Assembly (NCBI RefSeq): GCF_035084215.1
Contig: NW_027139666.1
Location: 4,154,001 to 4,218,000, forward strand
DNA length: 64,000 nt
DNA from: Heptranchias perlo
Taxonomy: Eukaryota
Direction: 5' to 3'
In this document: positions 794 to 56,469 of the stretch, piece by piece
How positions within the stretch are numbered: position 1 is the first letter of the stretch
Layout of the letters: every line of letters begins with the position of its first letter
Position numbers and translations under genes: made by a program
The notes under the pieces: generated by a model
The model's input: only the letters and a program-made list of their open reading frames with translations
What the model was told of the DNA's origin: nothing
The model's database searches: none

Positions 794-1804
794 ATGGAGA
801 AACCGTGGAAATGTGGGGACTGTGGGAGGGGATTCAGTTACTCGTCCCGGCTGGAAACTCATCGACACAGACACACTGGGGAGAGGCCGTTCACCTGCTC
901 CGTTTGTGGGAAGGGATTCACTCAGTCATCCCACCTCATTGAACATCAACTTGTTCACACTGATAAGAGACTTTTAAAATGTTCTGTCTGTGAGAAGAGC
1001 TTTAAAAGAAAAAGTGATCTGCTGACACACCAACGTACTCACACTGGGGAGAGGCCGTTCACCTGCCCCGTGTGTGGGAGCGGATTCACTCAATCTTCCC
1101 ACCTCATTGAACATCAACTTGTTCACACTGATAAGTGTCTTTTTAAATGTTCTGTCTGTGAGAAGAGCTTTAAAAGAAAAAGTGATCTGCTGACACACCA
1201 ACGTACTCACACTGGGGAGAGGCCGTTCACCTGCTCCGTGTGTGGGAAGGGATTTACTCGCTCATCTAGCCTACTGACACACCAGCGAGTCCACACTGGG
1301 GAGATGCCGTTCACCTGCTCTGTGTGTGGGAAGCGATTCACTCGATCATCCCACCTCCTGAGACATCAGCAAGTTCATATCGGGGAGAGGCCATTCACCT
1401 GCTCCCTGTGCGGGAAGGGATTCGCTCAGTCATCCACCCTGCTGACACACCAGCGAGTTCACACTGGGGAGAGGCCGTTCACCTGCTCCGTTTGTGGGAA
1501 GAGCTTTACTCAGTCATCCACCCTGCTGACACACCAACGAGTTCACACTGGGGAGAGGCCATTCACCTGCTCTGTGTGTGGGAAGGAATTCACTTGTTCA
1601 TCCGGCCTCATTGAACACCAACTTGTTCACACTGATAAGAGACCCTTTAAATGTTCAAACTGTGAGAAGAGCTTAAAAAGAACATGGGATCTGATGAGAC
1701 ATGAACGTATTCACATTGAGGAGATTCCGATCACCTGTTCCGTGTGTGGGATGGGATTCACTCAGTCATCCCACCTGCTGAGTCACCAGCGAGTTCACAT
1801 GTGA
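794..1804 (+). CDS. Tandem C2H2 zinc-finger protein, 12 fingers, 336 aa
   Basis: 12 CxxC-x12-HxxxH units, mostly with TGERPF linkers; AATAAA at 1939-1944; degenerate extra fingers upstream (549-793). Confidence 0.9.
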
Positions 1805-2139
1805 CTGCAGGAGTTGGATTCTGCTGTTATTGCTGTATCCAGGACTAAACCACGTTCATTCTGACAGTTGGAAGTTTGTTTCTGATGTTAATGACTCCCT
1901 TTAACTGGGCTGGAGTTTAGTATTCTGTACAAGTGTCAAATAAATTAGCTTTCTTTTAAACACAGTATTTTTGACCTTCATATCTCGATGATAAAAGAAA
2001 CAGTTCGAGGACTTATGACGACGTGAGTGGAATACGTCTTAGAACTGAGCTCCTCCACCTTTGTAAAAGATGGATCTTCAAGACATCCACGTCTGACAGG
2101 ACATAAAATTTTATTTATCACAGGGTCCACTTCAATCAG

Positions 2140-3430
2140 CCTGAGCAGGTTTCCACTACCCTTGTGTGAAAAAGAGCTTCCTGATTTCAATCCAAGACGC
2201 CCTAGCTCTAAATTTAAGGTTATGTCCTCTTGTTCTGGATTCCCCCACCAGAGAAAATAGTTTCTATTTCTACCTTATCGAATCCCTTTATTATTTTAAA
2301 TCCCTGGTTCAGATCACTCCTCAAACTTCCAAACTCAAGGGAATGCAAAACCAAGTTTATGCAACCGGTCCTCATAATTGAACACTTCAATGCCCAGTAT
2401 CATTCTGGTGAATCTGCACTGTCGCCCCTCCAAGGCCAATATATCCTTGGTGAGGATCAGTACACCAGATGGGCTCTGACCAAGGCTCTGTAGAACTGAA
2501 GCATCACTTCCTTCCCTTTGTAATTCCAACACTGGAGATAAATGCCATTTGTCTGTGGTTGCTTTTTGCATCTGTGTACTAGCCTTTAGTGATTTGTGTC
2601 CATGGACACCCAAATCCTTTTGCTCCTTCACCATTCCCAGTCTCTCACTTTCAGAAAATACTCCAATGTTTCCTTTTTGCATCCATATTGAATGATCTCA
2701 TACTTCCCCAATTTGAACTCCATCTGCCACAGTTTGTCCATTCGCTTAAACTTTCCCTTTGTAATTTCCTGCTTCCATCTACACAACTTACTGTACTTCA
2801 TAACTAAGTGTCATCTGGAAACTTGGACCTATTACTCTCTATTGCTTCATCCAAGTTATTGATAAATATGGTGAAAAGCTGAGGCCCCAGTACAGATCCC
2901 TGGGGACACCACTAGTCATATCCCGCCAATCAAAAAACATTCCCTTTCTCCTTACTCTTTTCTCCGACCTCCCAACCAATTCCAACCCAAGTCACAAGGT
3001 CACTTTCAATTTTGTACCTTTTATTTATTCTATTAATCTCTTGTGCTGAACCTTTGCAAATGCATTCTGTAAGTCCATATAGAAAACCTTCATAGACACT
3101 CCCCTGTCCACCTTGTTAGTTTCCTCAACAAATCCAACTAAATTAGTCAGACATGACCTGCTCTTCACGAATCCAAGCTCAGCTCCTTTTTTCTCTCATG
3201 ATAGGTTTAAGTAAGTTCCCCACAACCGACGTTAAAATGACAAGTCTGTATTGTCCTGATTTCTCCCTCCCTCCTTTCTTAAATAAACGGAGAGACATGT
3301 TCAACATTCATATCCAAAGGCACAATTCCTGAGTCTGGAGAGCTTTGGGAAATTATGATGAATGCATCTGCAATTTCCCCACCTGTTTCCTTTAAAACTC
3401 TGGGGTGGAAACCGTCAGGTCCTGGAGATT
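2140..3430 (-). mobile_element. Degenerate CR1-clade LINE fragment
   Basis: Minus-strand remnants 'KDLGVH..SLK', 'KDILALEGRQCRFTRMI', plus decayed GVPQGSVLGP and SPGPDG motifs. Confidence 0.8.
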
Positions 3431-3459
3431 TCATTCTTAGTTTGCAGTTATTTATTTAT

Positions 3460-3642
3460 CTGACTGTGTATAACAGGACTGAGTGTCCCAGCTCTGAGTG
3501 TGTGTATAACAGGACTGAGTGTCCCAGCACTGACTGTGTCGATAACAGCACTGAGTGCCTCAGCACTGACTCTGCATATAACAGGACTGAGTGTCCCAGC
3601 ACTGACTGTGTGTTATACAGGACTGAGTGTCCGAGCACTAAG
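3460..3642. repeat. 36-bp minisatellite (~5 copies)
   Basis: Unit aacaggactgagtgtcccagcactgactgtgtgtat; same family as 53992-54770. Confidence 0.9.
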
Positions 3643-3644
3643 GG

Positions 3645-3790
3645 TGGCGAGACATGCGGTTGTCGGTAGAGATTAAATCGGTTGCAGGGGGTTACAGAGA
3701 TAGGGAGAGGGAGATTGTCATGGAGGGATTTGAACACGAGGATGAGAATTTTAAAATCGAGGCATTGCCACACCGGGAGCCAATGTAATG
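3645..3790 (-). mobile_element. L2-clade LINE fragment
   Basis: 'LHWLPVWQCLDFKILILVFKSLH' is an L2 ORF2 C-terminal motif; paralogous to ~54850-54985. Confidence 0.7.
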
Positions 3791-3854
3791 GAACACGAAC
3801 AGAACAAGACACACACGTAGGTCTCACAACAGAGCATGGACGGTCTGAAAGACC

Positions 3855-4312
3855 ACCTCCCTCCCGGGGTCACGGTACCTCCATCCCGGGTTCGTGGTCA
3901 CACCATCCCGGGGTCGCGGTCCCTCCGTCCCTGGGGTCGCGGTCCCTCCGTCTCTGGGGTCGCGGTCCCTCCATCCAGGGTTCACGACCCCTCCCTCCCG
4001 GGATCGCGGTACCTCCCTCCCGGGGTCGCAGCACCTCCGTCCCGGTGTCAGGATCCCACTGTACCAGGATCGCGGTCCCCACCTTCCCTGGGTCGCGGTC
4101 CCACCGTCCCGGGGTCGCAGTCGCTCCGTCCCTGGGGTCGCATCCCTCCATCCCGGGGTCGACGCCCCGCTGTCCCAGGATCGCGGTCCGACCATCACGG
4201 GGTCGCGTTCCCTCCGTCCCGGGGTCTCAGTCCCACCGTTCCAGGGTCTCGGTCCCTGCATCCCGTGGTCTCGGTCCCACCGTCCCGGGCTGTCGGTCCC
4301 TCCGTCCCGGGC
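3855..4312. repeat. GC/CpG-rich ~19-20-bp minisatellite
   Basis: Repeated ccggggtcgcggtccctccgtc-like units. Confidence 0.88.
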
Positions 4313-4329
4313 TTTGCAACCCCATTAAC

Positions 4330-4710
4330 GCCGCTCGGGCCTGAAGTCGGAGGAGCTGTTGCTCGGACCGCCCTCACTGCGCCATTCCAAGTCCCCGGGG
4401 CCCAGGCCATTTCCAGGTGCGGACCCTCCCTCTGTCAGTCTCGACCCCGCCCACAGCAGCGGCCGCCCGCACTCCGACCGGAGGCTGCCATCATCATCCT
4501 CCTGGCAGGCGCCTGTTGCTAAGAGAAAGCGGCAAAGGGACCGCGCGGCGCCCCTCGGGCCGGAGATGCATGCACGCATCGCGATGTCAGCGCGTCAAGG
4601 TGAGAGACGGTGCCGCGTGTCACGTGATAGGAGGAGTCAGCCCAGGACGCAGGCGGGCGGAGGTGAGGGCTGTCAATCAAAGGGCCCGGAGTCAGCACTC
4701 ACTGCGCACA
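4330..4710. promoter_or_regulatory. CpG island / promoter-like region
   Basis: CpG-dense; E-box CACGTG at 4621-4626; the paralog at 55520-55730 carries CRE TGACGTCA (55603-55610). Confidence 0.5.
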
Positions 4711-5294
4711 GGGTTTGGAGAATTTGTTTAAAAAATAAAAATAGAAATGTACAAAAAAAGTGGATAAATTGCAAATTCAACAATCTGAATTAAAAACAGA
4801 AATGTCCAAACTCACATAAGGCTAATGGTCTGGGTTCTCCTGCCACTCTCAGTCTTCTCGACCTGGGGCACAGGATGAGCAGAATGCTTGAATCTATATT
4901 TTTTAATGCAGAGTGCGCTGGATGTATGGAATGGACCAGCAAGGGAGGCAGTGGGGCCTGATTGTATCAGCAAATTCCACAGAGTTGGGAAAGTACCTGA
5001 TAGCGCTACCTTGGGATATGACAGCCTAGAAATTGGGATCTTTCATTCATTTCTTACACTTGTGCACTTATTTTTATTGATTGGTGTACCTGGACACCCA
5101 AACCCCTCTGCTCCTCCACAGTCCCTAGTTTCTCACCCTTAAGAAAATACTCCCTATTTCTCACCTGATGCCTGCAATAAATTATATTTGTATAACTTCC
5201 AACATCTTTACGTGGAGATGCCGGTGATGGACTGGGGTTGACAATTGTAAACAATTTTACAACACCAAGTTATAGTCCAGCAATTTTATTTTAA

Positions 5295-5335
5295 ATTCAC
5301 AAGCTTTCGGAGGCTTCCTCCTTCCTCAGGTAAAT
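5295..5335 (-). ncRNA. Minimal type I hammerhead ribozyme (left arm)
   Basis: Reverse complement reads auuuac-CUGAGGA-a-ggagg/aag/ccucc-GAAA-gcu-u-gugaau. Confidence 0.8.
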
Positions 5336-5651
5336 GTTCAGGAGCTCCTCGAAGCCTACGCATTTGTACATATAGAACAATACATGGTGTTTACAGAATG
5401 CCCCTGGAACTGCCCGTTGCCAAGGCAATCACCGTGTTCAGACAGAGAGGTGTCACCTGCAGAACCCCCGAATACACAGTTGAATGCACGGTTGAATACA
5501 CGGTTGAATGTGTATTCGGGGGTTCTGCAGGTGACACCTCTCTGTCTGAACACGGTGATTGCCTTGGCAACGGGCAGTTCCAGGGGCATTCTGTAAACAC
5601 CATGTATTGTTCTATATGTATAAATGCGTAGGCTTCGAGGAGCTCCTGAAT

Positions 5652-5692
5652 ATTTACCTGAGGAAGGAGGAAGCCTCCGAAAGCTTGTGAAT
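5652..5692 (+). ncRNA. Minimal type I hammerhead ribozyme (right arm)
   Basis: Stem I auuuac/gugaau; core CUGAGGA 5658-5664; stem II ggagg/ccucc; GAAA 5679-5682; palindromic AGCU helix III; NUH=CUU ending at 5686. Confidence 0.8.
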
Positions 5693-5959
5693 TTAAAATA
5701 AAATTGCTGGACTATAACTTGGTGTTGTAAAATTGTTTACAAACATCTTTACGATTCGGGTCTGTTTCCACTCTTCAGTGTCCAATAAGAAGAGACATAG
5801 TGAGACTGGAACTTTATTTAATATTTCAAAATATACTTTATTTCATAAAATTCATGAATAGACACAGTTCAATGTAAATATTACAATTACAATTCAAAAC
5901 AAATACAATACACATCATACGATTCCATTATTACAAGTCAAAACACAGTAAATATCTTC

Positions 5960-6290
5960 TAACACATGCTGTACAATATAAGGTGGGATAGCGTTACACG
6001 GTTGCCTTTCCCCATAAAGCCTTTGTGTAGGCCGCACCTCGCTTCAGTGTGCACCTCAGCATGAAATACTGGACCTTGGATTCTGCTAGTGGCCAACACT
6101 TGGCCGCGGACAGTTCCCTCGGCTGGAAGACCTGCTGGTTTCGGGGGAACAAAGGGCCTCCCTGACCGAATTGATGGTCTTCCAGCAGCTGTTGATATCT
6201 GTCTCGTTGTGCATCTTGGACAACTGCCCATAGAGGACAGCGACCTGTGTTACCGAGCTGTTGGGATGAACTCCTCTTCGACACCACGGT
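5960..6290 (-). mobile_element. Tx1/L1-clade LINE 3' fragment
   Basis: Frameshifted 'VLYG..ETDINSCWKTINSVREAL..ELSAAKCWPLAESKVQYFMLR..ALWGKATV*'; paralog at 58387-58670. Confidence 0.7.
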
Positions 6291-7399
6291 GTAGGGGTTC
6301 ATTCTCCGTGGATGAGGTTATCACCTTTTACCTGAATACGCGGATCCATTCGCACACATTCATGTTAGTGTTCGGCAAACACTGTCTGATGTCTTTCACA
6401 CACCTTTCGAACCTTGGGGTCAGAGACGTAGGGGGTATTTTTACCTTCACATCTTGGGCGGTAAACTGACTGAGCAAAAATTAAAATCTGGCCGGTTCTA
6501 TAAGGGGCGGGTGATCGGCTCTACCAGTTCAGTTCCCAGCGATGGTGAAAATTTCCCTCCACGTGTTATGAACCGATGCAATTTGAGAAAATGGACCAGC
6601 TTGTGGGCTTCGAAGATTGATTCTAGCGCGGAGGTCAGGAATGGTGTGGCCGATTTTAAGTATACTCGCCTGGCAGAAATGGGGTGGTCGAGGCGAGTAA
6701 ATGGTATCAGGTCACTTACCGCCCCTTTAACACTGGCGTTCCTGCCTCCACCATCGTGGGTCATGTCCTGAGAAGAGCGGCCCGAGCAACACCCACCTGT
6801 TTCCGGTCAGGCCAATTGTAATATGTAAATCAGATTATTATGACGTACAGGGGAAACCATTTAATGTTGGTGAAAAATCGGTGGAGGAGCCGCCCTTTAG
6901 ATAGGCATTGAGTGGTCCAGAACACTGAGAAGTTTCTTTTTAACTCATATTTTGTGAGGCAAGGAGCAGCAGGAGAGCTTTCCCTTGGCCTGCTGCGGCC
7001 GTGTGAAATCTCCCGCCCTCTGATCGTCTCAGAAATGTATCAGGAGGTTTCCTTCTCGATCTGTGCAACGAGGCCCAGCCTCATGTCTCATTAAACTCCC
7101 TGCAGTGAGTAAACATTGCTGCACAGCAGCTCAGAGAGGAAACGATCTCCGGAACTCCCCACTGGAGTTAGAAATTACAAGAATATTTTATGAGTTATTC
7201 TGTTCTGGTCAAAACAAATGTCCCAATGAACAGGACGCTGTCTGACCCTGACAGCTCACCCTCAGTCCATCCCACCGGGCAGTGTGTGTGATGGGGAATA
7301 ATCATCAACCGAAATGGAGCATTTGATTTTATTCATTACAGGATTAAACATTTAATATTGAAATCATATTATTTCCCGACTAATAACAGCAAACCTTTT

Positions 7400-7620
7400 C
7401 ATGTTAGAATCAAATCTTGTATTATTTCTCAAAAAGCATTTGTTGGATAAAATACAATTCCTGTCTGCTATTTCCAAATTTATTTGAAGTATTGGATTGA
7501 TATCAGTTACTTCAGTGAACTCATTGGTGTCAATGGATAGTAAAATCAGGCGTAGTGAACAATGGGGTCCCGATCCGCTATCGCCGACTTACTCCACCGC
7601 CAAAGCGGAAAATCCACTCT
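7400..7620 (-). pseudogene. Truncated duplicate of the GPCR C-terminal tail/3' region
   Basis: Aligns with 59300-59523; homology stops abruptly at ~7620. Confidence 0.7.
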
Positions 7621-8781
7621 CTTAATTAGCAGTTTACAAAATTCTTATTCCAGCTGATTTGTAGAATCTCATGTGTTGGGGTTTGAATTGTGAAGCGGAT
7701 TTTCTCCGCCAGTTTTACCGTCTCACAGAGACTCTCACCCTGAATCTGTAAAAAGGTTATGACCATGAACTGGGACTGGAGCCGAACACATCCCCAGTTA
7801 CGGTGTGGCCTGGACACCCCATTCTCTCTGTTTTATATCAGACAGTATTCCACCTTCAAAAACAGCACTCGAGAGAGAAAGCAAGACACACACTGTCAGT
7901 CTTACACTTCCTATCAGTATGTTCATATCACGCTCAATAGCAGTATCCAACCTTCATATACAGCACCAGAGAGTGAGAGAGAAAGGGAGACAGATACTGT
8001 GACAGAGCGAGCGGAGAGGCACAGTGCAACAGTATCAGTTCCAGACTGACTTGTAAAGTTGCGTTTTATCCAGAAATTCCCGTTGTAGAGACAGAAGATG
8101 CAGTCTTGTCTCTCACTGATATACCAGAGACGGACACACCATTAATCCCACACTCAGGGACAGTGCAGAGAGTGACAAAAACAATGTGGGCCGAATTTAA
8201 CCCTCTCTTGCCTGTTGTACTACATTCGGTTTTGCAGATCAGGGCCGTTCGCTATTACTCTCAGTGACCGAGAGTTTCACTCTGATTATATTAATACATC
8301 ATATATTAATATGGGACTGTTGCTGTCAGATATTAATCCTACACGCTCCCAGCAAATACACGGACTCCGACTTTCCTCCCATTTTTCTCCAGGATTGGTT
8401 TGAGAATTCCTGCATCCAGTTTCGGAGTCACACGTTACTTGATGGGTAAAGTGGCCAAGTGTGAACAGAATCCATTGGTTCATTTCAAAATGTCCCACTT
8501 TATCTATGAATGACTATTTACCATCAAAAGATACCGAGAGAAACAGCAGGGATGAAAACATCTAGTTTAATAGTTAGAGATTGTAAAGTCAGTCTGGATT
8601 CCAGCGTTAGTCACTGGTGGAATCCCATCTGTTTCCCATTCTGGTGCCTGTTCCTGCACTGCCTGTGGACCCCATTCCCTCTGACCTTTCCCTCAGCCCC
8701 ACTTGCTTTTCTCAGACTCTGAAAAATTCCAATTGGGGAAAGTTTCCATCGATTTCTGCATTGGGAATTAAACCAGATATC

Positions 8782-9040
8782 TGCGCATGCGTGACTCAGC
8801 CCCGCCCCCAGCGCTGATTGTTGGTGAGTAGAAGAGCGCATGCGCGCTCCCCTCCCCCAGCTCGGCCTGTGGGCGCCATTCCCTCAGTGAGCGGAAGAAG
8901 ATGGTTTAAAACAGCCGGGAATGGAGAGATCACGGCCCCCGGGGGAAGGGAGCAAAGAGCAGCCTCGTTACAGCAGCTCATCGCTTCGGGACAGTGTCCG
9001 CAGATGGGCTCAGAGATCGGCATTGAGTCCAGGGTAAGGG
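8782..9040 (+). promoter_or_regulatory. CpG promoter module, copy 1 (NRF1, AP-1, GC box, NRF1) + putative first exon
   Basis: TGCGCATGCG 8782-8791, TGACTCA 8792-8798, CCCCGCCCC 8800-8808, GCGCATGCGC 8836-8845; possible donor gtaagg at ~9034. Confidence 0.65.
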
Positions 9041-10609
9041 CAGGGGAGTCTGTTTGTAAGAGGCGGAGTGGATCAGGAACTGGTCCCGGAACATGGAGTG
9101 AGCGGGGGAAGGGAGAGGACATTATCGGGCTGTGTGTGCACAGCGTGTGTCCAGGGTCAGGGAGTCAGAATGAGAAGAACCTGTTATTTCAAATCATTGC
9201 TGCTTGCTCTCGCCAGACCAGTAGGGAATGTTCCTGGTTTAGGTCCAGTCTCAACCTGTTTATTGTGATTCGACAGTGAAGAGTGGAACGGAGCCGGACA
9301 GTAAGGATGTGGGGAGCTATCCAAAGAGCATCTATTGCAGGCACCAGGTGAGAAGTGTGAAGGACACATTTTAAGCAGCGGCTGTTTTGTTTCGGTTGAA
9401 CGGTTAGTCCCATGTGAGAGGGGAGTGGAAACCTGACCTGCACAAAGGACCCTGCCACATCGGGTAGTCCCATTTATGGTTGTGTTGTGTCTGGATGTCA
9501 CTAAATTGTTGTAAAACAGCCCACCACTCGTGGTGTGCAGAAGCTGAATGCTGCAGTACTGCAGTGGAGTCAGATACTGACACTGTTTGTGTTGCTGGTT
9601 TTGTGGATAATCAAAATAATCATTAACAAAGATATTAATTCGAACAATTTTGTATTTTCTACCTCACTGGTTCTTGAGTTACAAGAGAAAAATTTCTTCC
9701 GACAGGCAAATCCCTGAAGGACCCAGAATCAGTGTTATGTTTCCTCCACTCGAGGCACAAGGAACAGTGCAGCCAACTCCTTCTCCCACACAGTAAGTAC
9801 ATTATCACACACAGCGCACAGAGACACAGACAGGTCATCAGTTCCACAGTCTCGGGCAGTAGAAGCACTGACCCAAGTTCCACAGACACATTTTCAATCC
9901 AACATTCAAACAAAGCAGGTGAGGCAGACACTGTTCCATTTCCCCCGAGCTGAGTCCCGCTGACAGGTAGATACTGAAATCCCAGTCCAATATCACACTA
10001 TCAGATTGAAAGGCACTGTGTCAATCTCACAATAGGGCAACATTAGCTCGAATTAAATACCAGATCGAAATCACACATGGTACCCGATTGAAAGGGACAG
10101 AATGAAACCCAATAATGTACCCTGAGATTCCAATTGATTATTGCCCAGAATTCACACACTCACGTGAGTTTAATACACTATTCGAATGGATATTGCATGT
10201 ATCATGCGATACAAATTGCATACGTGTCCAAAACTCATGTACAGTATCAGATTGAGAAATGCTGTGAGAGTGTAACCTGAGAAACAAATTAGATATCAGT
10301 TTATAATACACTCATAGTATGAGATTTAAAGATACAGTATCAATTCTATTAGTACAGACTGAGCTACACATTATACACCATTTGAAAAGTGTCACGAAAT
10401 CAATTTGAAAGATACATTATCATTCACAACAGTACTCACAGAGATACAGATTTAATAGTAGCTCAAAAAGCACACAAATTATCTGATTAATACCTACAGC
10501 GTCAAATCCTAAAGAGTACCCATATTTACCAGTTAATGAGAAATATGATCTAAACATGAAGATATTAAAGGTACAATTTTGAACGCCATAATGCAATCTG
10601 AGAGAATAA

Positions 10610-23995: not shown

Positions 23996-25599
23996 AGTCC
24001 GGGGGCTGTTTGTAAGAGGCGGAGTGGATCAGGAACTGGTCCCGGAACATGGAGTGAGAGGGGGAAGGGAGAGGTCATTCTCAGGCTGTGTTTGTGCAGG
24101 ATGTGTCCAAGGTAAGTGAGTCAGAATGGGAAGAAACTGCTATTTAAAATCATTGCTGCTTTCTCTCCCCAAACCAGTAGTGAATGGTCCTGGTTTAGTT
24201 CCAGTCTCACCCTGTTTGTTGTTATTGGACAGTGAAGAGTGGAACCAGAGCCGGACAGTAAGGATGTGGGGAGTTATACAAAGAGCATCTTTTGCAGGCC
24301 TCAGGTGAGAAGTGTGAAGGGCACATTTTAAACAGCGGCTATTTGGTTTCGGTTGAATGTTTCGTCCTCTGGGAGAGAGCATTAGAAACCTGACCTGTGC
24401 ATAGGTCCCCGCCCCATCGGGTCGTCCCATTCATGGATCAGTCCAGGGGTTGGGTTGTGTCTGGATGTCACTAAATTGTTCTAAAACAGCCCAACACACC
24501 TGGTGTGCAGAAGCTGAGTGCTTCATTACTGCAGTGGATTCAGACACTGACACTGTTTGTATGGCTGGTTTTCATAATGATCATTAACAGAGAGATTAAA
24601 CTGTTCACCTTTGTATTATCTTCCTCTCTGGTTCTGGAGTTACAACAGTTACTTTTTCTTCCAACAGGCAAATAATTGAAGGGCCAAGAAAACATGTGAT
24701 GTTTCCTCCACCCGAGGCACAAGGAACAGTGCAGCCAGCTCCTTCTCACACACGGTCGGTACATTATCACACACAGAGCACAGAGACACAGACAGGTCAT
24801 CAGTTCCACAGTCACAGGCATCACAATTATTCAGTCTCAGACTGATCCCAAGATTCGGAGACACATTTTCAATCCAACAGGGAAACAGAGCAGTTGAGGC
24901 AGACGCTTTTAACATTTCGCCCTAACTCAGTATCTACTAGTATCTACCCGAAAAGGTAGATACAAAAAACCCAGTCCAAAGTCACGCTTTCAGATTGTCA
25001 ATCTCACAGTAGAGGAACATTAGCTACGAATTAAATATCAGACAGAAATCACACATGAAATCCAATGGAAAGGTACAGAATGAATCCCAATAATGTACCC
25101 CGAGATTCAAATTGAATACTGGCCCAGAATTCTCACACACGTATGAGTTTAATACATGTACTATCGATTAGAATAGTGCATCATGAGATATAAATTGCAT
25201 ACCAGTCCAAAACTCTCATACAAACAATTGGATTGAGAAATGCTGTGGCAGCGTAACATGAGAAACAAATTAGATACCTGTTTATAATACACTCATTTTG
25301 AGATTTAAAGATACAGTTTCAATTCAATTAGCACCGACTGAATTACACATTACATACCAGTCCAAACATGTCACCACATCAGTTTGAAAGATACATTATC
25401 ATTCAAATTTGTGTTCACAGAGATACCGATTTAATCATAGTCCAAAAAGCGCACAAATTATCTGATTGAAATCTTCCAGCATCAAATCCTAAAGTGTATC
25501 CATATTTTCCATTTAAATAATGAGAAAAACTATTTAAACATTAAGATATTAAAGCTACAGCATTGAATGCAATAATATAATCTGAGAGAAAATTATAGG

Positions 25600-28309: not shown

Positions 28310-29399
28310 TTCGGAACAAATTGCTGAAACCGGACAATGTGCAGTGTGAGCGTGTTTGTGATTGGTGGCAGGAATCAAATCTGATTTTTTTTAACCTGCC
28401 CATTAACCTTTATTGTTTGTTATTGAAAAGCAAATAGTGCCAGAAAGTAAGGATATGGGGAGTTAGACAGAGAGCATCTATTGGAGGCATCAGGTGAAAA
28501 GTGTGACGGACACATTTTAAACAGCGGCTGTTATGTTTCGGTTGAACGGATAGTCCCATGGGAGAGGGGATTAGAAAGCTGACCTGTACAAAGGTCCCTG
28601 CCCCATCGGGTAGTCCCATTCATGGATCAGTGCAGGGGCTGGGTTGTGTCCAGATTTCAATAAATTGTTGTAAAATAACCCAATACCCCTGGTGTGCAGA
28701 AGCTGAGTACTGCAGTGCAGTCAGACACTGACACTGTTTGTATCGCTTGTTTTCATTTGTGGTTATTACAATGATTACTAACAGAGATTCAATTGATCAC
28801 TTTTGTATTTTCTACCTCACCTGTTCTTGAGTTACAAGAGATACTTTCTCTTTCGACAGTCAAATCCTTGAAGGACCCAGAATCAGTGTGATGTTACCTC
28901 CACCCGAGGCACAAGGAACAGTGCAGCCAGCTCTTTCTCACACACAGTATGTACATTATCACAAACAAAGCACAGAGACACAGACAAGTCATCAGACCCA
29001 CAGTCTCAGACAGCAGAAATAGTCAGTCCTACACTGATCCCAATCCAACAGTCAAACAGTGCAGGAGAGACAGACGGAATTTCCATTTCACAACAACTCA
29101 GTACCGCTGACCGCAGTTAATTAATTCCCAGTCCAAAATCACACCCAGTATCAGATTGAAAGGCAATGTGTCAATCTCACATTAGTTCAGCCTTAGCTAC
29201 AAATTAAATACCCGATAGAACTGATACATGGTACCGATTGTTAGGTACAGAATGAATCCCAATAGTGTACCACAAGATTCAAATTAAATACCAGCCCACA
29301 ACTCACACACATTATTAGTTTAAAGATGCAGTATTCATGCCAATAGTGTACACTGAGATACAAATTAGATAGCAGTTCAGATGTTACCCATGTTTGACT

Positions 29400-43255: not shown

Positions 43256-43769
43256 TGCCAGATGTGTTGGGCTGTTTTAAAACAATTTCGTCACATCCAG
43301 ACACAACACAACACAACATCTGCACTGATCCATGAATGGGACTACCGGATGGGACAGGGACCTTTGTACAGGCCTGGATTCTAATCCCCTCTCCCATGGG
43401 ATCGACCGTTCAACCGAAACCAAACAGCCGCTGTTTAAAATGTGTCGTTCACACTTCTCACCTGATCCCTGCAATCGATGCTCTTTGTATAACTCCCCAC
43501 ATCCTTACTGTCCGGCTCTGTTTCCACTCTTCACTGTCCAATAACAATCAACAAGGTGAGACTGGAACTAAACCAGGATCATTCACTACTGGTTTGGGGA
43601 GAGAAAGCAGCAATGATTTTAAATAGCAGGTTCTTCCCATTCTGTCTCCCTTCCCCTGGACACACCCTGTACACACACAGCCCGAGAATGGCCTCTCCCT
43701 TCCCCCGCTCACTCCATGTTCCGGGACCAGTTCCTGATCCACTCCGCCTCTTACAAACAGCCCCCGGAC

Positions 43770-47891: not shown

Positions 47892-47963
47892 GCGATGGTG
47901 CTATAGTAGTGAACATAGCTGCCTTCCAAGCAATTGACTCGGGTTCGATTCCCAGCCATCGCA
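47892..47963 (+). tRNA. tRNA-Gly(TCC), degenerate (likely pseudogene)
   Basis: 72-nt cloverleaf with GCGATGG/CCATCGC acceptor, CTTCCAA loop, GGTTCGATTCC; D-loop GG>AG and stem mismatches; T-run downstream. Confidence 0.82.
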
Positions 47964-52240: not shown

Positions 52241-53694
52241 GGTATTAGAAGGGGAGGATTTGCAGATGGGAAACTCAAACCAAACATCACATCAAGATCT
52301 GACAGTCACTCGACTCACCAGCACCTGAAGATCATCTGCCTTTGAATATAGAAGGAGGAATGTTTGTCTGTTCCGTCTCTGAGAAGAGATTTCAAACATC
52401 AGTGTAACTGGAAAAACACCGAGACACACACACCCGAGTGAGAGTGTTCCAGTGCACTGACTGTGGAAAGAGCTTTAACCAGTTATACAGCCTGAAAAAA
52501 ACACCGCACCATTCACAGTGGGGAGAAACCGTACACGTGTTGTGTGTGTGGACGAGGCTTCAACTGATCATCCAACCTGGAGAGACACAAGGACACCCGG
52601 ACCACGGAGAAACCGTGGAAATGTGGGGATTGTGGGAAAGGATTCAGATTCCCGTCCCTTCTGGAAACTCATCGACGCAGTCACACCGGGGAGAGGCCGT
52701 TCACCTGCTCCATGTGTGGGAAGTGATTCATTCAGTCATCCAGTCTTCTGACACATCAACTGGTTCACACTGATAAGAGACCTTTCAAATGTTCTGACTG
52801 TGAGAAGAGCTTTAAAAGTCAAACGGAACTACTTGCACACCAACGGACTCACACAGGGGAGAGGCCGTTCACCTGCACTGAGTGTGGGAAGAGATTCACC
52901 CAGTCATCCCATCTGCTAACACACCAACGAGTTCACACTGGGGAGAGGCCGTTCACCTGCTCTGTGTGTGGGACGGGTTTCACTCTGTCACCCAGCCTCA
53001 CTGAACACCAACTTGTTCACATTGATAAGATATCCTTTAAATGTTCTAACTGTGAGAAGAGCTTTAAAGGAACAAGTGATCTGCTGACACACCAGCGTGT
53101 TCACACTGGGAGAGGCCGTTCACCTGCTCCGTGTGTGGGAAGGAATTCACTCAGTCATCCAGCCTACTGATACAGCAGCGTGTTCACACTGGGAGAGGCC
53201 GTTCACCTGCTCCGTGTGTGGGAAGGGATTCACTCGTTCATCCAGCCTACTGATACACCAGCGTGTTCACACTGGGAGAGGCCGTTCACCTGCTCCGTGT
53301 GTGGGAAGGGATTCACTCGTTCATCCAAACTCATTGAACATCAACTTGTTCACACTGATAAGAGACTTTTCAAATGTTCTGACTGTGAGAAGAACTTTAA
53401 GAGAAAAAAAGAACTGCTGACACACCAAGGACTCACACTGGGGAGAGGCCGTTCACTTGCTCGCTGTGTGGGAAAGGATTCACTCAGTTATCCAGCCTCA
53501 TTAAACATCAACTTGTTCACACTGATAAGAGATCCCTGAAATGTTCTGTCTGTGAGAAGAGCTTTAAAACAAAGTGGAATCTTCTCACACATGAACGTAT
53601 TCACACTGGGGAGAGGCCATTCACCTGCTCCGTGTGTGGGATGGGATTCACTCAATCATCCCACCTGCTGAAACACCAGCGAGTTCACATGTGA
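52241..53694 (+). pseudogene. C2H2 zinc-finger pseudogene, paralog of 794-1804
   Basis: Acceptor at 52239-40; ATG>ACG at the MEKPW start; in-frame stops and several -1 frameshifts; same terminal HQRVHM*. Confidence 0.88.
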
Positions 53695-53991
53695 CTGCAG
53701 GGGTTGGATTCTGCTGCTATCGCTGCTGTGAATCACATCCAGGACTGAACCATGTTCATTCTGACACTTGGGGTTTGTTTCTGATGTTAATAACCCCTTT
53801 AACTAGGCTGGAGTTTAGTATTCTGTACAAGAGTCAAATAAATCAGCGTTCCTTTAAAGACAGTGTGTCTAGTGCTTGATATCTTGATGAAAAGACAAGC
53901 TGATTGTAGATTATTATGAAGTGAGTAGAATCCATCTTATAACTGGGTTCCTATACCTTTTAAAAGATGGATACACAAGACGTCCAAGTCG

Positions 53992-54770: not shown

Positions 54771-56469
54771 TGATCGTGCGTCGAGTGTACATGGGCTGTG
54801 GGCGGAGATAAATGGGTGGGGTAGAATCCATGATAGGGTGGAGTGGCATGGGGTTGTCCGAGGAGATTAAATCGGTTGGAGGAGTTTACAGAGATGGGGA
54901 AGGGGAGAGGACCATGGAGGGTTTTGAACACGAGGATGAGGATCTTAAAATCGAGACGTTGCCGACCGGGGGCCAGTGTAGTAACACACGAACAGAAACT
55001 TACGGGTCACTGCCCGGCAGACAGGTGGAGAAGACATTGATGTCCGCGGAGGAATAGTCAGGGTCACAGCAGCAGTCGAGGGGTTGAAAATGAGGAGGGG
55101 TTTTGATGGAGTCGATGGGGAGAAACTGTTGCCACTGGCTGGAGGGTCCGTAACCAGAGGGCACAGATTGAAGGGAATTGGGAAAAGAGGCAGAGGGAGA
55201 TGAGGAGAATGTTTTTCGGCAGCGAGTTGTTCTGATCTGGAATTCACTGCCTGAAAGGGCGGTGGGAGCAGATTCAATAGTAACTTTCAAAAGGGAATCG
55301 GGTCAATCCTTGAAGGGGAGAAATTTGCGGGACTGTGGGGAAAGAGCAGGGGAGTGGGACTCATCGAATCGCACTTTCACAGGGCCGGCACGGGCGCGAT
55401 GGGCCGAGCGGCCTCTTTCACAGAGCCGGCACAGGCGCGATGGGCCGAGCGGCCTCTTTCAAAGAGCCGGCACAGGAGCCGTCAGCCCGACGCCCGCCAA
55501 GCCCGCTCTCCCATCTCAGGCCACTCCCGGGTGCGGGCCCTCCCTTTGTCGGGCGAAGGCCCGCATCATCTTCCTCCTGGCTCCGGATCAAGGACCGCGT
55601 CTTGACGTCAACGCGCTAAGGTGAGTGACGCTGACCCGTGTCACTTGATGGGAGGAGTCAGTCCGGGGTCCGGGAGGGGGTTTGTTCGAGCTGTCAATCA
55701 AATTGCCCGGAATCAGCACTCACTGCGTAAAGGGATGAAGATTTTGTTTAAAAATGCTAAATCTGCAAGAATGAATTTAAAATATAAAGCTACAAAAAAG
55801 GCAAGAAATTGCAAATACAACAATCTGAATTAAAAACAAACGTCCAAATTCATATTAGGCTGATGGCCTGGGTCCTCCTGGGTCCTCCTGCCACTATTCG
55901 TCTTCTCTCCCTCGGGCATAGGATGAGCAGATTGATTTAATGTAACCTTTTTAATGCATAGGATGCTGGATGCATGGAATGGCCCAGCAAGGGAGGCAAT
56001 GGGGCCTGATTGTATCAACAAATTCCAGAGAGTTGGCGAATTACCTGATAGCGGTACCTTGGAATATGACAGCCTAGAAATTGGGACCTTAATTAATTTT
56101 TCTACATATGCAATAACTTTTAGTGATTGTTGTACCTGGACACCCAAACCCCTTTGCTCCTCTACGGTCATTAGTTTCTCATCATTAAGGAATTAATCCT
56201 ATTTCTCACCTGGTGCTTGAAGTAGATGCTCTTTGTTTATCTTCCCATATTTTTCCTGTCCGGCTGTATTTCCACAATTCACTGTCCAATGACAACAGAC
56301 ACGATGAGAATGGAACTTTTAAAAAATATTTCAAGACATACTTTATTTCATACAATTTATGGATACAGACAGTTCAATGTAAATATCACAGTTACAATTC
56401 AAAATAATACAATATAGATCGTACACATTACGAATCCATTATTACAATTCAACACACTGTACATATCTT

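Follow-up and report, generated by a model that had tools for sequence, protein, structure and literature searches.

A 529-bp palindrome in the Heptranchias perlo genome is a single insertion of a Penelope-like element 3' end, probably built by reverse transcription from both sides of a staggered cut

Overview

The palindrome at positions 5201-5753 of the window (the whole 64,000-nucleotide stretch of DNA analysed here) is best explained as a one-time insertion of a Penelope-like element (PLE) 3' end, without an open reading frame (ORF), that was later copied to five places together with the surrounding block of host sequence. Its mirror shape probably arose from two reverse transcriptions primed at the two sides of a staggered cut. 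We demonstrate the identity of the parent element, a single insertion event, a 12-bp TSD, and one tailed and one tail-less end. The locus is ordinary for the PLE class, and with five of 30 paralogues carrying the insert there is no sign of a host role; the interest lies in what can be inferred for the family rather than in the single locus.

Anatomy of the insert

Recomputation on the window reproduced, nearly base for base, the 12-bp TSD, the 234-bp arms with two mismatches and the 32-nt tail on one end only that had been described in a first-pass annotation (Table 1). The TSD, AACATCTTTACG, occurs only twice in the whole window. The inverted arms span 5245-5478 and 5509-5742, with mismatches at 5336/5651 and 5366/5621, both of which are private to the window copy and absent from its four duplicates. 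The centre between the arms (5479-5508) measures 30 bp, as annotated, but the 12-bp repeats said to fill it cover only 24 bp (5479-5502), the remaining 6 bp (5503-5508) being sequence of the parent element. Each 12-mer consists of the 7 nt that open the right arm and 4-5 nt that close the left arm, and the junction is located at a natural GAAT-4nt-ATTC mini-hairpin adjoining a U-rich tract. Relative to the parent unit, the tailed arm plus tail corresponds to positions 2811-3078 in antisense orientation and the tail-less arm to 2805-3045 in sense orientation, with 96% identity.

Table 1. Features of the insert and its target site (window coordinates).
Feature	Position	Strand	Remarks
Left TSD, 12 bp	5201..5212	.	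Single copy of the site in 25 empty paralogues
PLE tail, 32 nt	5213..5244	-	Terminates 6 nt before the point, at the ORF start codon, where tails of the family mostly end
Tailed arm, element 3' UTR/pLTR	5245..5478	- (sense strand)	Unit positions 2811-3045
AATAAA hexamer, candidate signal	5285..5290	-	
Minimal type I hammerhead motif	5295..5335	-	Pattern scan and stem covariation
TATA-like box	5361..5368	-	TACAAATG in the window copy; unaltered in the four duplicates
Junction insert, two 12-mers	5479..5502	+	Inferred end-joining scar
Tail-less arm, element 3' UTR/pLTR	5503..5741	+ (sense strand)	Unit positions 2805-3045
TATAAATG box	5619..5626	+	TATA-like, unaltered in this arm
Minimal type I hammerhead motif	5652..5692	+	Pattern scan, alignment and covariation
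AATAAA hexamer, candidate signal	5697..5702	+	
Right TSD, 12 bp	5742..5753	.	Second occurrence of AACATCTTTACG

The parent element and its clade

By walking into partial copies we reached the parent, a naturally occurring 3,081-bp tandem unit. Its 902-aa ORF is intact and has its start codon at the exact point where the tail ends. The ORF contains an RVT_1 domain (E 3e-10, Pfam scan), a DKG motif, a C-x4-C-x2-C linker and a C-terminal VVY..YIG endonuclease motif. The last of these, together with C-C-H-H residues, was recognised by eye; the local Pfam scan of the 902-aa ORF returned no GIY-YIG match, and many relatives of the protein carry PF01541, which we take to be GIY-YIG. Two loci, L097 and L100, are tandems with a period of ~3,081 bp and thus show the partial tandems forming pLTRs that are seen in EN+ PLEs. 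With its reverse transcriptase (RT) and endonuclease ORF, pLTR tandems, inverted truncated copy, tail and hammerhead, the parent has, as far as sequence can tell, the make-up of an EN+ Penelope-like element.

The linker is present in the parent and in all nine of nine aligned relatives, and it fits the CX2-5CxxC pattern between RT and C-terminal endonuclease that marks the Neptune and Nematis clades (PMC8557442). Relatives in turtles and echinoderms would favour Neptune over Nematis. The nearest named proteins come from sharks, at 93-94% and 85%, and next from turtles. Exact genome-wide copies number 28,539 for a 41-mer of the tail and 64,092 for a 30-mer of the 3' end common to both arm types. 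Both arms represent the 3' end (pLTR) of this abundant retrotransposon, and the window insert keeps no ORF; its anatomy is a known one. The Penelope-like origin, minimal type I hammerhead motifs, inverted pLTR with a one-sided tail and young age put forward in the first-pass annotation are all borne out, the age by the 96% match to an intact unit.

Pieces of the family were also found as contigs in two runs that we guess to be RNA, in a form that carries no strand, start or level. A shark epn2 isoform model (P0016) includes a 96%-identical piece of the parent ORF, either through exon capture or as an annotation artefact.

One insertion, duplicated with its host block

The spacer junction occurs five times in the 3.25-Gb genome with up to two mismatches allowed, against none for a control. 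All five copies have the same TSD and lie in the same duplicated host block, with flanks 97-98% identical over 5-7 kb; the common TSD and flanks indicate one insertion event followed by segmental duplication. Among the 30 best right-flank paralogues (93-98% alike in the flank), five contain the insert and 25 do not, and in each of those 25 the 12-bp site is present once with nothing between the flanks. A genome search yielded the same number of whole copies, five, plus many partial ones (40 of 178 candidates were scored). An empty paralogous site within the window, previously placed at 56215-56245, does exist, but it lies at ~56246-56257, in a paralogue that is only 77-80% alike.

We weighed two other accounts of the palindrome at this level. 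That it was made by a fold-back artefact of assembly is extremely unlikely: although none of the short-read contig matches listed spans the spacer junction of the window copy, the TSD is exact and matched by 25 empty sites, the five copies are spread over two contigs and carry private changes, the 24-bp centre is non-palindromic, and short-read contigs of two DNA runs contain the empty-site joint together with many palindrome joints of the family. The first-pass annotation had favoured another account, in which the whole 529-bp palindrome moves as a non-coding RNA unit in its own right, and had proposed counting whole palindromes with different TSDs, unique junctions in other copies being taken to mean one-off insertions. 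Five near-identical whole copies could be read in favour of mobility, as could a shorter palindrome whose 2-nt junction recurs, with differing flanks, at five of 25 inverted pairs hand-counted among the matches listed. However, flanks and TSD are common to all five whole copies, no whole palindrome with a different TSD was counted, other insertions have their own junctions, and each of 54 sampled centres is distinct. The five recurrent short palindromes fall into three sequence types, each alike on both arms and two of them also found in long copies; given these three types and a common stop point, repeated formation suffices to explain the recurrence. Mobility is thus refuted for the window junction, and as a general account of the palindrome we regard it as highly improbable.

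The host block (window 1019-10584) has at least 30 duplicates on two contigs (C1275 and C1499), 93-99% alike in the tested flank, among which the insertion marks one sub-lineage of five. The target site lies within a host motif with a CCAAT-containing end, and this motif, possibly a promoter-type repeat, has at least four further, diverged occurrences in the window (9241-9354, 24197-24311, 28447-28500 and 43455-43569).

Hammerhead motifs

Scanning the window with a minimal-hammerhead pattern gave two matches only, at 5294-5336 (-) and 5651-5693 (+). On the plus strand, stem I is formed by 5652-57 and 5687-92, followed by CUGAGGA (5658-64), an extra A (5665), stem II (5666-70/5674-78), GAAA (5679-82) and the AGCU palindrome (5682-85). 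The core order is CUGAGGA-A-stem II-GAAA-GC-UU, so that AGCU and CUU overlap. The boxes, the 6-bp stem I and the AATAAA that follows had therefore been annotated correctly for each arm, whereas AGCU and CUU had been listed as separate elements and the A preceding stem II had been missed; the predicted cut, after 5686, is the same from our layout. The CUGANGA/GAAA/UH core, the extra base at 9-10.1, the G10.1-C11.1 pair and the palindromic 15.2-16.2 positions are all present. The stems covary (8 of 11 pairs changed on both sides, against 0 of 500 shuffles), with 8 of the 15 both-side cells coming from one distant-family row and three pairs covarying within the family. An Rfam scan, the model search that had been suggested for these motifs, found no hammerhead at the gathering score or at E<=10; the motif lacks a helix III of its own. 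Rfam miRNA matches on the insert reflect hairpin shape only.

In the best explanation both ribozyme motifs are passengers of the pLTR, and each arm has its own since there are two pLTR copies. For cutting they would require a same-sense partner RNA. The modelled two-copy fold has a 4-bp AGCU helix between the molecules, but with stem II swapped, and an RNA reading through the insert is predicted to fold into a ~249-bp stem that sequesters the ribozyme. The TATA-like boxes face outward in each arm, so transcripts starting there would not include the other arm. Across the family, 173 of 189 arms extend through the predicted cut, which indicates that templates were mostly uncut. We rejected cleaved RNA as the main template: only 7 of 189 arms have an end no more than 4 nt away from the predicted cut, and such ends can be explained by the AAGCTT palindrome close by.

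A second, distant family of minimal hammerheads was found at L141:2142-2184(-) and L076:999-1041(-), where CG replaces GC at the palindromic helix III position.

Survey of the family

The family sample was drawn from 0-9 Mb of C1, at one end of a single chromosome, with 15 hand-picked pairs added. The first 60 tail-anchored loci along C1 include 41 with an inverted partner and 17 without; two were unscored. Among 61 inverted pairs, most of them chosen via the tail, 59 combine a tailed with a tail-less arm and none has two tails; the 15 pairs chosen by their ribozyme end with the tail ignored have exactly one tail each (15/15). The TSD is 12 bp long in 31 of the 61 pairs and 13 bp in 17 (as a control, the TSD finder returned nothing at 181 of 200 random sites). 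The 3' ends of 189 arms are bimodal, with 90 at unit positions 3037-3054 and 95 at 3076-3092, and arms lacking an inverted partner end at both of these start sites as well. The 54 short junctions consist of 20 overlaps, three blunt joints and 31 inserts. Eighteen of the inserts measure 5 nt or more, and 11 of these are locally templated, copying neighbouring sequence. The inverted build is thus the norm in this family, and junctions are almost always locus-specific.

The junctions of L091, L108, L119 and L177 contain 20-200 nt captured from the flanks, from elsewhere in the element or from an unassigned source. Two further loci, L016 and L166, are inserted into or beside related pLTR sequence, and the TSD of L166 is itself pLTR-like.

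Formation of the mirror shape

In the mechanism that we consider probable, the GIY-YIG endonuclease of the element would nick both strands 12 bp apart, and each 3' end would prime cDNA synthesis on uncleaved element RNA, beginning at a distal site (the end of the tail at the ORF ATG) on one side and at a proximal site ~35-38 nt upstream on the other. Both cDNAs would halt ~200 nt in, just ahead of the U-rich tract, and would then be joined head to head by microhomology-type repair, leaving the two 12-mers. Since the cDNAs are ~200 nt long, the template would have extended upstream of the promoter, as a read-through or tandem transcript. The one-sided tail is consistent with two primings, each at its own start site; copying of one arm from the other could not produce both the tail and the longer 5' reach of the tail-less arm. 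The many sister copies suggest that the PLE class probably inserts by copying RNA from both cut sides at once.

The closest experimental parallel is Poseidon PAc of the green anole, for which both strands are nicked and extended, two start sites bound the tail, ribozyme cleavage is dispensable with uncleaved RNA being used, and a dimer is predicted, as in our model for the window family (PMC11167929); these are in vitro data from a different clade. PAc differs in that its ORF begins within stem II and includes the tail, whereas the tail of the window family ends at the ATG. Inverted products, 5'-end run-off and mixed arms were not found for PAc in the accessible parts of that paper.

It is also conceivable, if unlikely, that the same one-off insertion acquired its second arm by fold-back self-priming or from an antisense template, with endonuclease trimming giving the tail, or that a longer inverted insertion was trimmed at its centre. 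Self-priming (PMC3846280) and endonuclease resolution of the tail (PMC8557442) have both been proposed for PLEs, and here the junction sits at a natural mini-hairpin. The two arms of the window copy were identical at both mismatch sites before duplication and share an allele absent from all other sampled arms. Symmetric ends are in excess: in 22 pairs an end falls outside the main stop zone, and in 11 of these the two arm ends differ by no more than 10 nt, compared with a shuffled mean of 1.9; the window copy is itself of this symmetric type (200/206). The coupled arm ends and shared private allele fit fold-back or centre trimming better than two independent cDNAs, and the identity of both arms in 39 of 59 pairs also speaks against the two-priming account. 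Against these explanations, the tail-less arm is the longer one, by at least 5 nt at the 5' side, in 19 of 52 short pairs, and it extends further 5' by 6 nt in the window copy and by ~3 kb in L079; arms without an inverted partner terminate at both start sites; and the arms of 10 of 59 pairs differ at alleles known from other loci.

These mixed arms hint at two RNA templates per event. In 59 pairs, 39 of which have identical arms, we counted 38 non-CpG arm differences, and 13 of these (in 10 pairs) fall at alleles common to at least three other loci, where 7% would be expected (p 1e-6); the count is pairwise, covers the sampled pairs and hand-picked loci, and leaves out L101 and L162 (no TSD), L085 (end artefact) and one L093 duplicate. 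Several mixed-arm pairs have both ends at the inferred transcription start, and a single RNA could not provide such an end for each arm. Alternatively, mixed arms may stem from ectopic conversion within a family of ~60,000 copies, of which L005 is a possible case.

Stop points of short copies and the TATA box

The 5' ends of the arms accumulate just upstream of the ribozyme (58 of 117 arms within 45 nt, a hazard ~10x background). A TATAAATG box is found upstream in 29 of 29 distinct long references with one mismatch allowed, and among 148 short arms, 30 have their 5' end at TATA+29 to +31, six at +26 to +28, 50 at +32 to +48 and 22 before +20. The stop peak tracks the TATA offset between subfamilies (11:4 vs 6:18, Fisher p 0.007), and unpaired arms also have a TATA-linked peak. 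From the ends of short copies 29-31 nt downstream of the TATAAATG box, transcription of the right arm would start at ~5649. In one subfamily, 6,554 copies genome-wide reach the inferred +1, 3,748 go 4 nt further (-43%) and 3,325 reach another 4 nt beyond that (-11%). This +1 is the A of TCATTT, which we take to be initiator-like. We infer that short copies stop by run-off at the mRNA 5' end, with a pause site as the alternative. A spliced template was considered and rejected, as the region upstream of unpaired copies is flank with no common exon. The window copy extends ~110 nt beyond the TATA box, which points to a read-through RNA template and leaves an outward-facing promoter candidate on both arms. 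For comparison, Penelope starts transcription within its pLTR and is TATA-less (PMC2377424), and TATA/Inr motifs have been noted in rotifer pLTRs (PMC3846280).

We see roughly equal grounds for and against a more general scheme, in which a dimeric RNP with two RNAs would prime both nicks of the 12-bp staggered cut, one per start site. On normal mRNA the start sites would lie ~95-135 nt from the cap, so that most events would run off the 5' end and leave ribozyme stubs and palindromes that lack a promoter, and ORF-bearing copies would come from read-through tandem transcripts alone. If true, this scheme would account at once for the tail on one side, the inverted arm and the requirement for tandems. 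The family offers three predictions: capped 5' ends of its RNA at TATA+30, a single tail in each inverted insertion, and arms that mix sequence from two RNAs. A literature search listed no paper with the run-off or two-RNA points, which Arkhipova 2006, Repbase or Dfam may contain.

Comparison with known elements

Other EN+ PLEs likewise have an inverted, 5'-truncated copy placed head to head, a TSD, palindromic junctions, a 30-40 bp tail at one end and TATA/Inr-like pLTR motifs (PMC8557442, PMC3846280). The window insert differs from them in having no ORF, and its family in having TSDs of 12-13 bp, compared with 8-10 bp in examples from rotifers; roughly two in three of its sampled loci are inverted, with a median length of 232 bp. 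A retained 5'-UTR intron, as in Penelope and Chlamys, is a further trait of EN+ PLEs.

The ribozyme motifs share with the minimal type I hammerheads of metazoan PLEs the same core boxes, extra base at 9/10.1, G10.1-C11.1 pair and palindromic 15.2-16.2, and are distinguished by a 6-bp stem I and 5-bp stem II (PMC4209133). According to the same source, such ribozymes have no activity as monomers and low activity as dimers, and Schistosoma has dual hammerhead motifs 100-700 bp apart on opposite strands. Non-LTR retrozymes are also non-coding, PLE-derived and equipped with a type I hammerhead, but form head-to-tail tandem units, in contrast to the one head-to-head pair of the window insert (bioRxiv 10.64898/2026.07.22.740005).

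A young family with intact ORFs and tens of thousands of exact 3'-end matches is useful for learning how PLEs make inverted arms, tails and tandems. The genome-wide load of short, near-perfect hairpins could also feed dsRNA pathways if transcribed.

Other features of the window

Beside the insert, the minus strand at 5800-6320 contains broken reading frames with two AATAAA hexamers (5818 and 5842). The frames resemble the 3' end of a Tx1/L1-type LINE; a Pfam search of two minus-strand frames at 5959-6317 gave no match. Read-through from this region would cross the palindrome.

The window also holds a histone gene cluster among satellite arrays of 36-, 46- and 82-bp period, with seven histone 3' stem-loops and one tRNA-like match (Rfam) at 15700-46176 and 47892-47963. 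Two paralogous zinc-finger-like arrays with an 84-bp period are present at 872-1799 and 52496-53725, the second of which includes 83-bp steps that suggest frameshifts.
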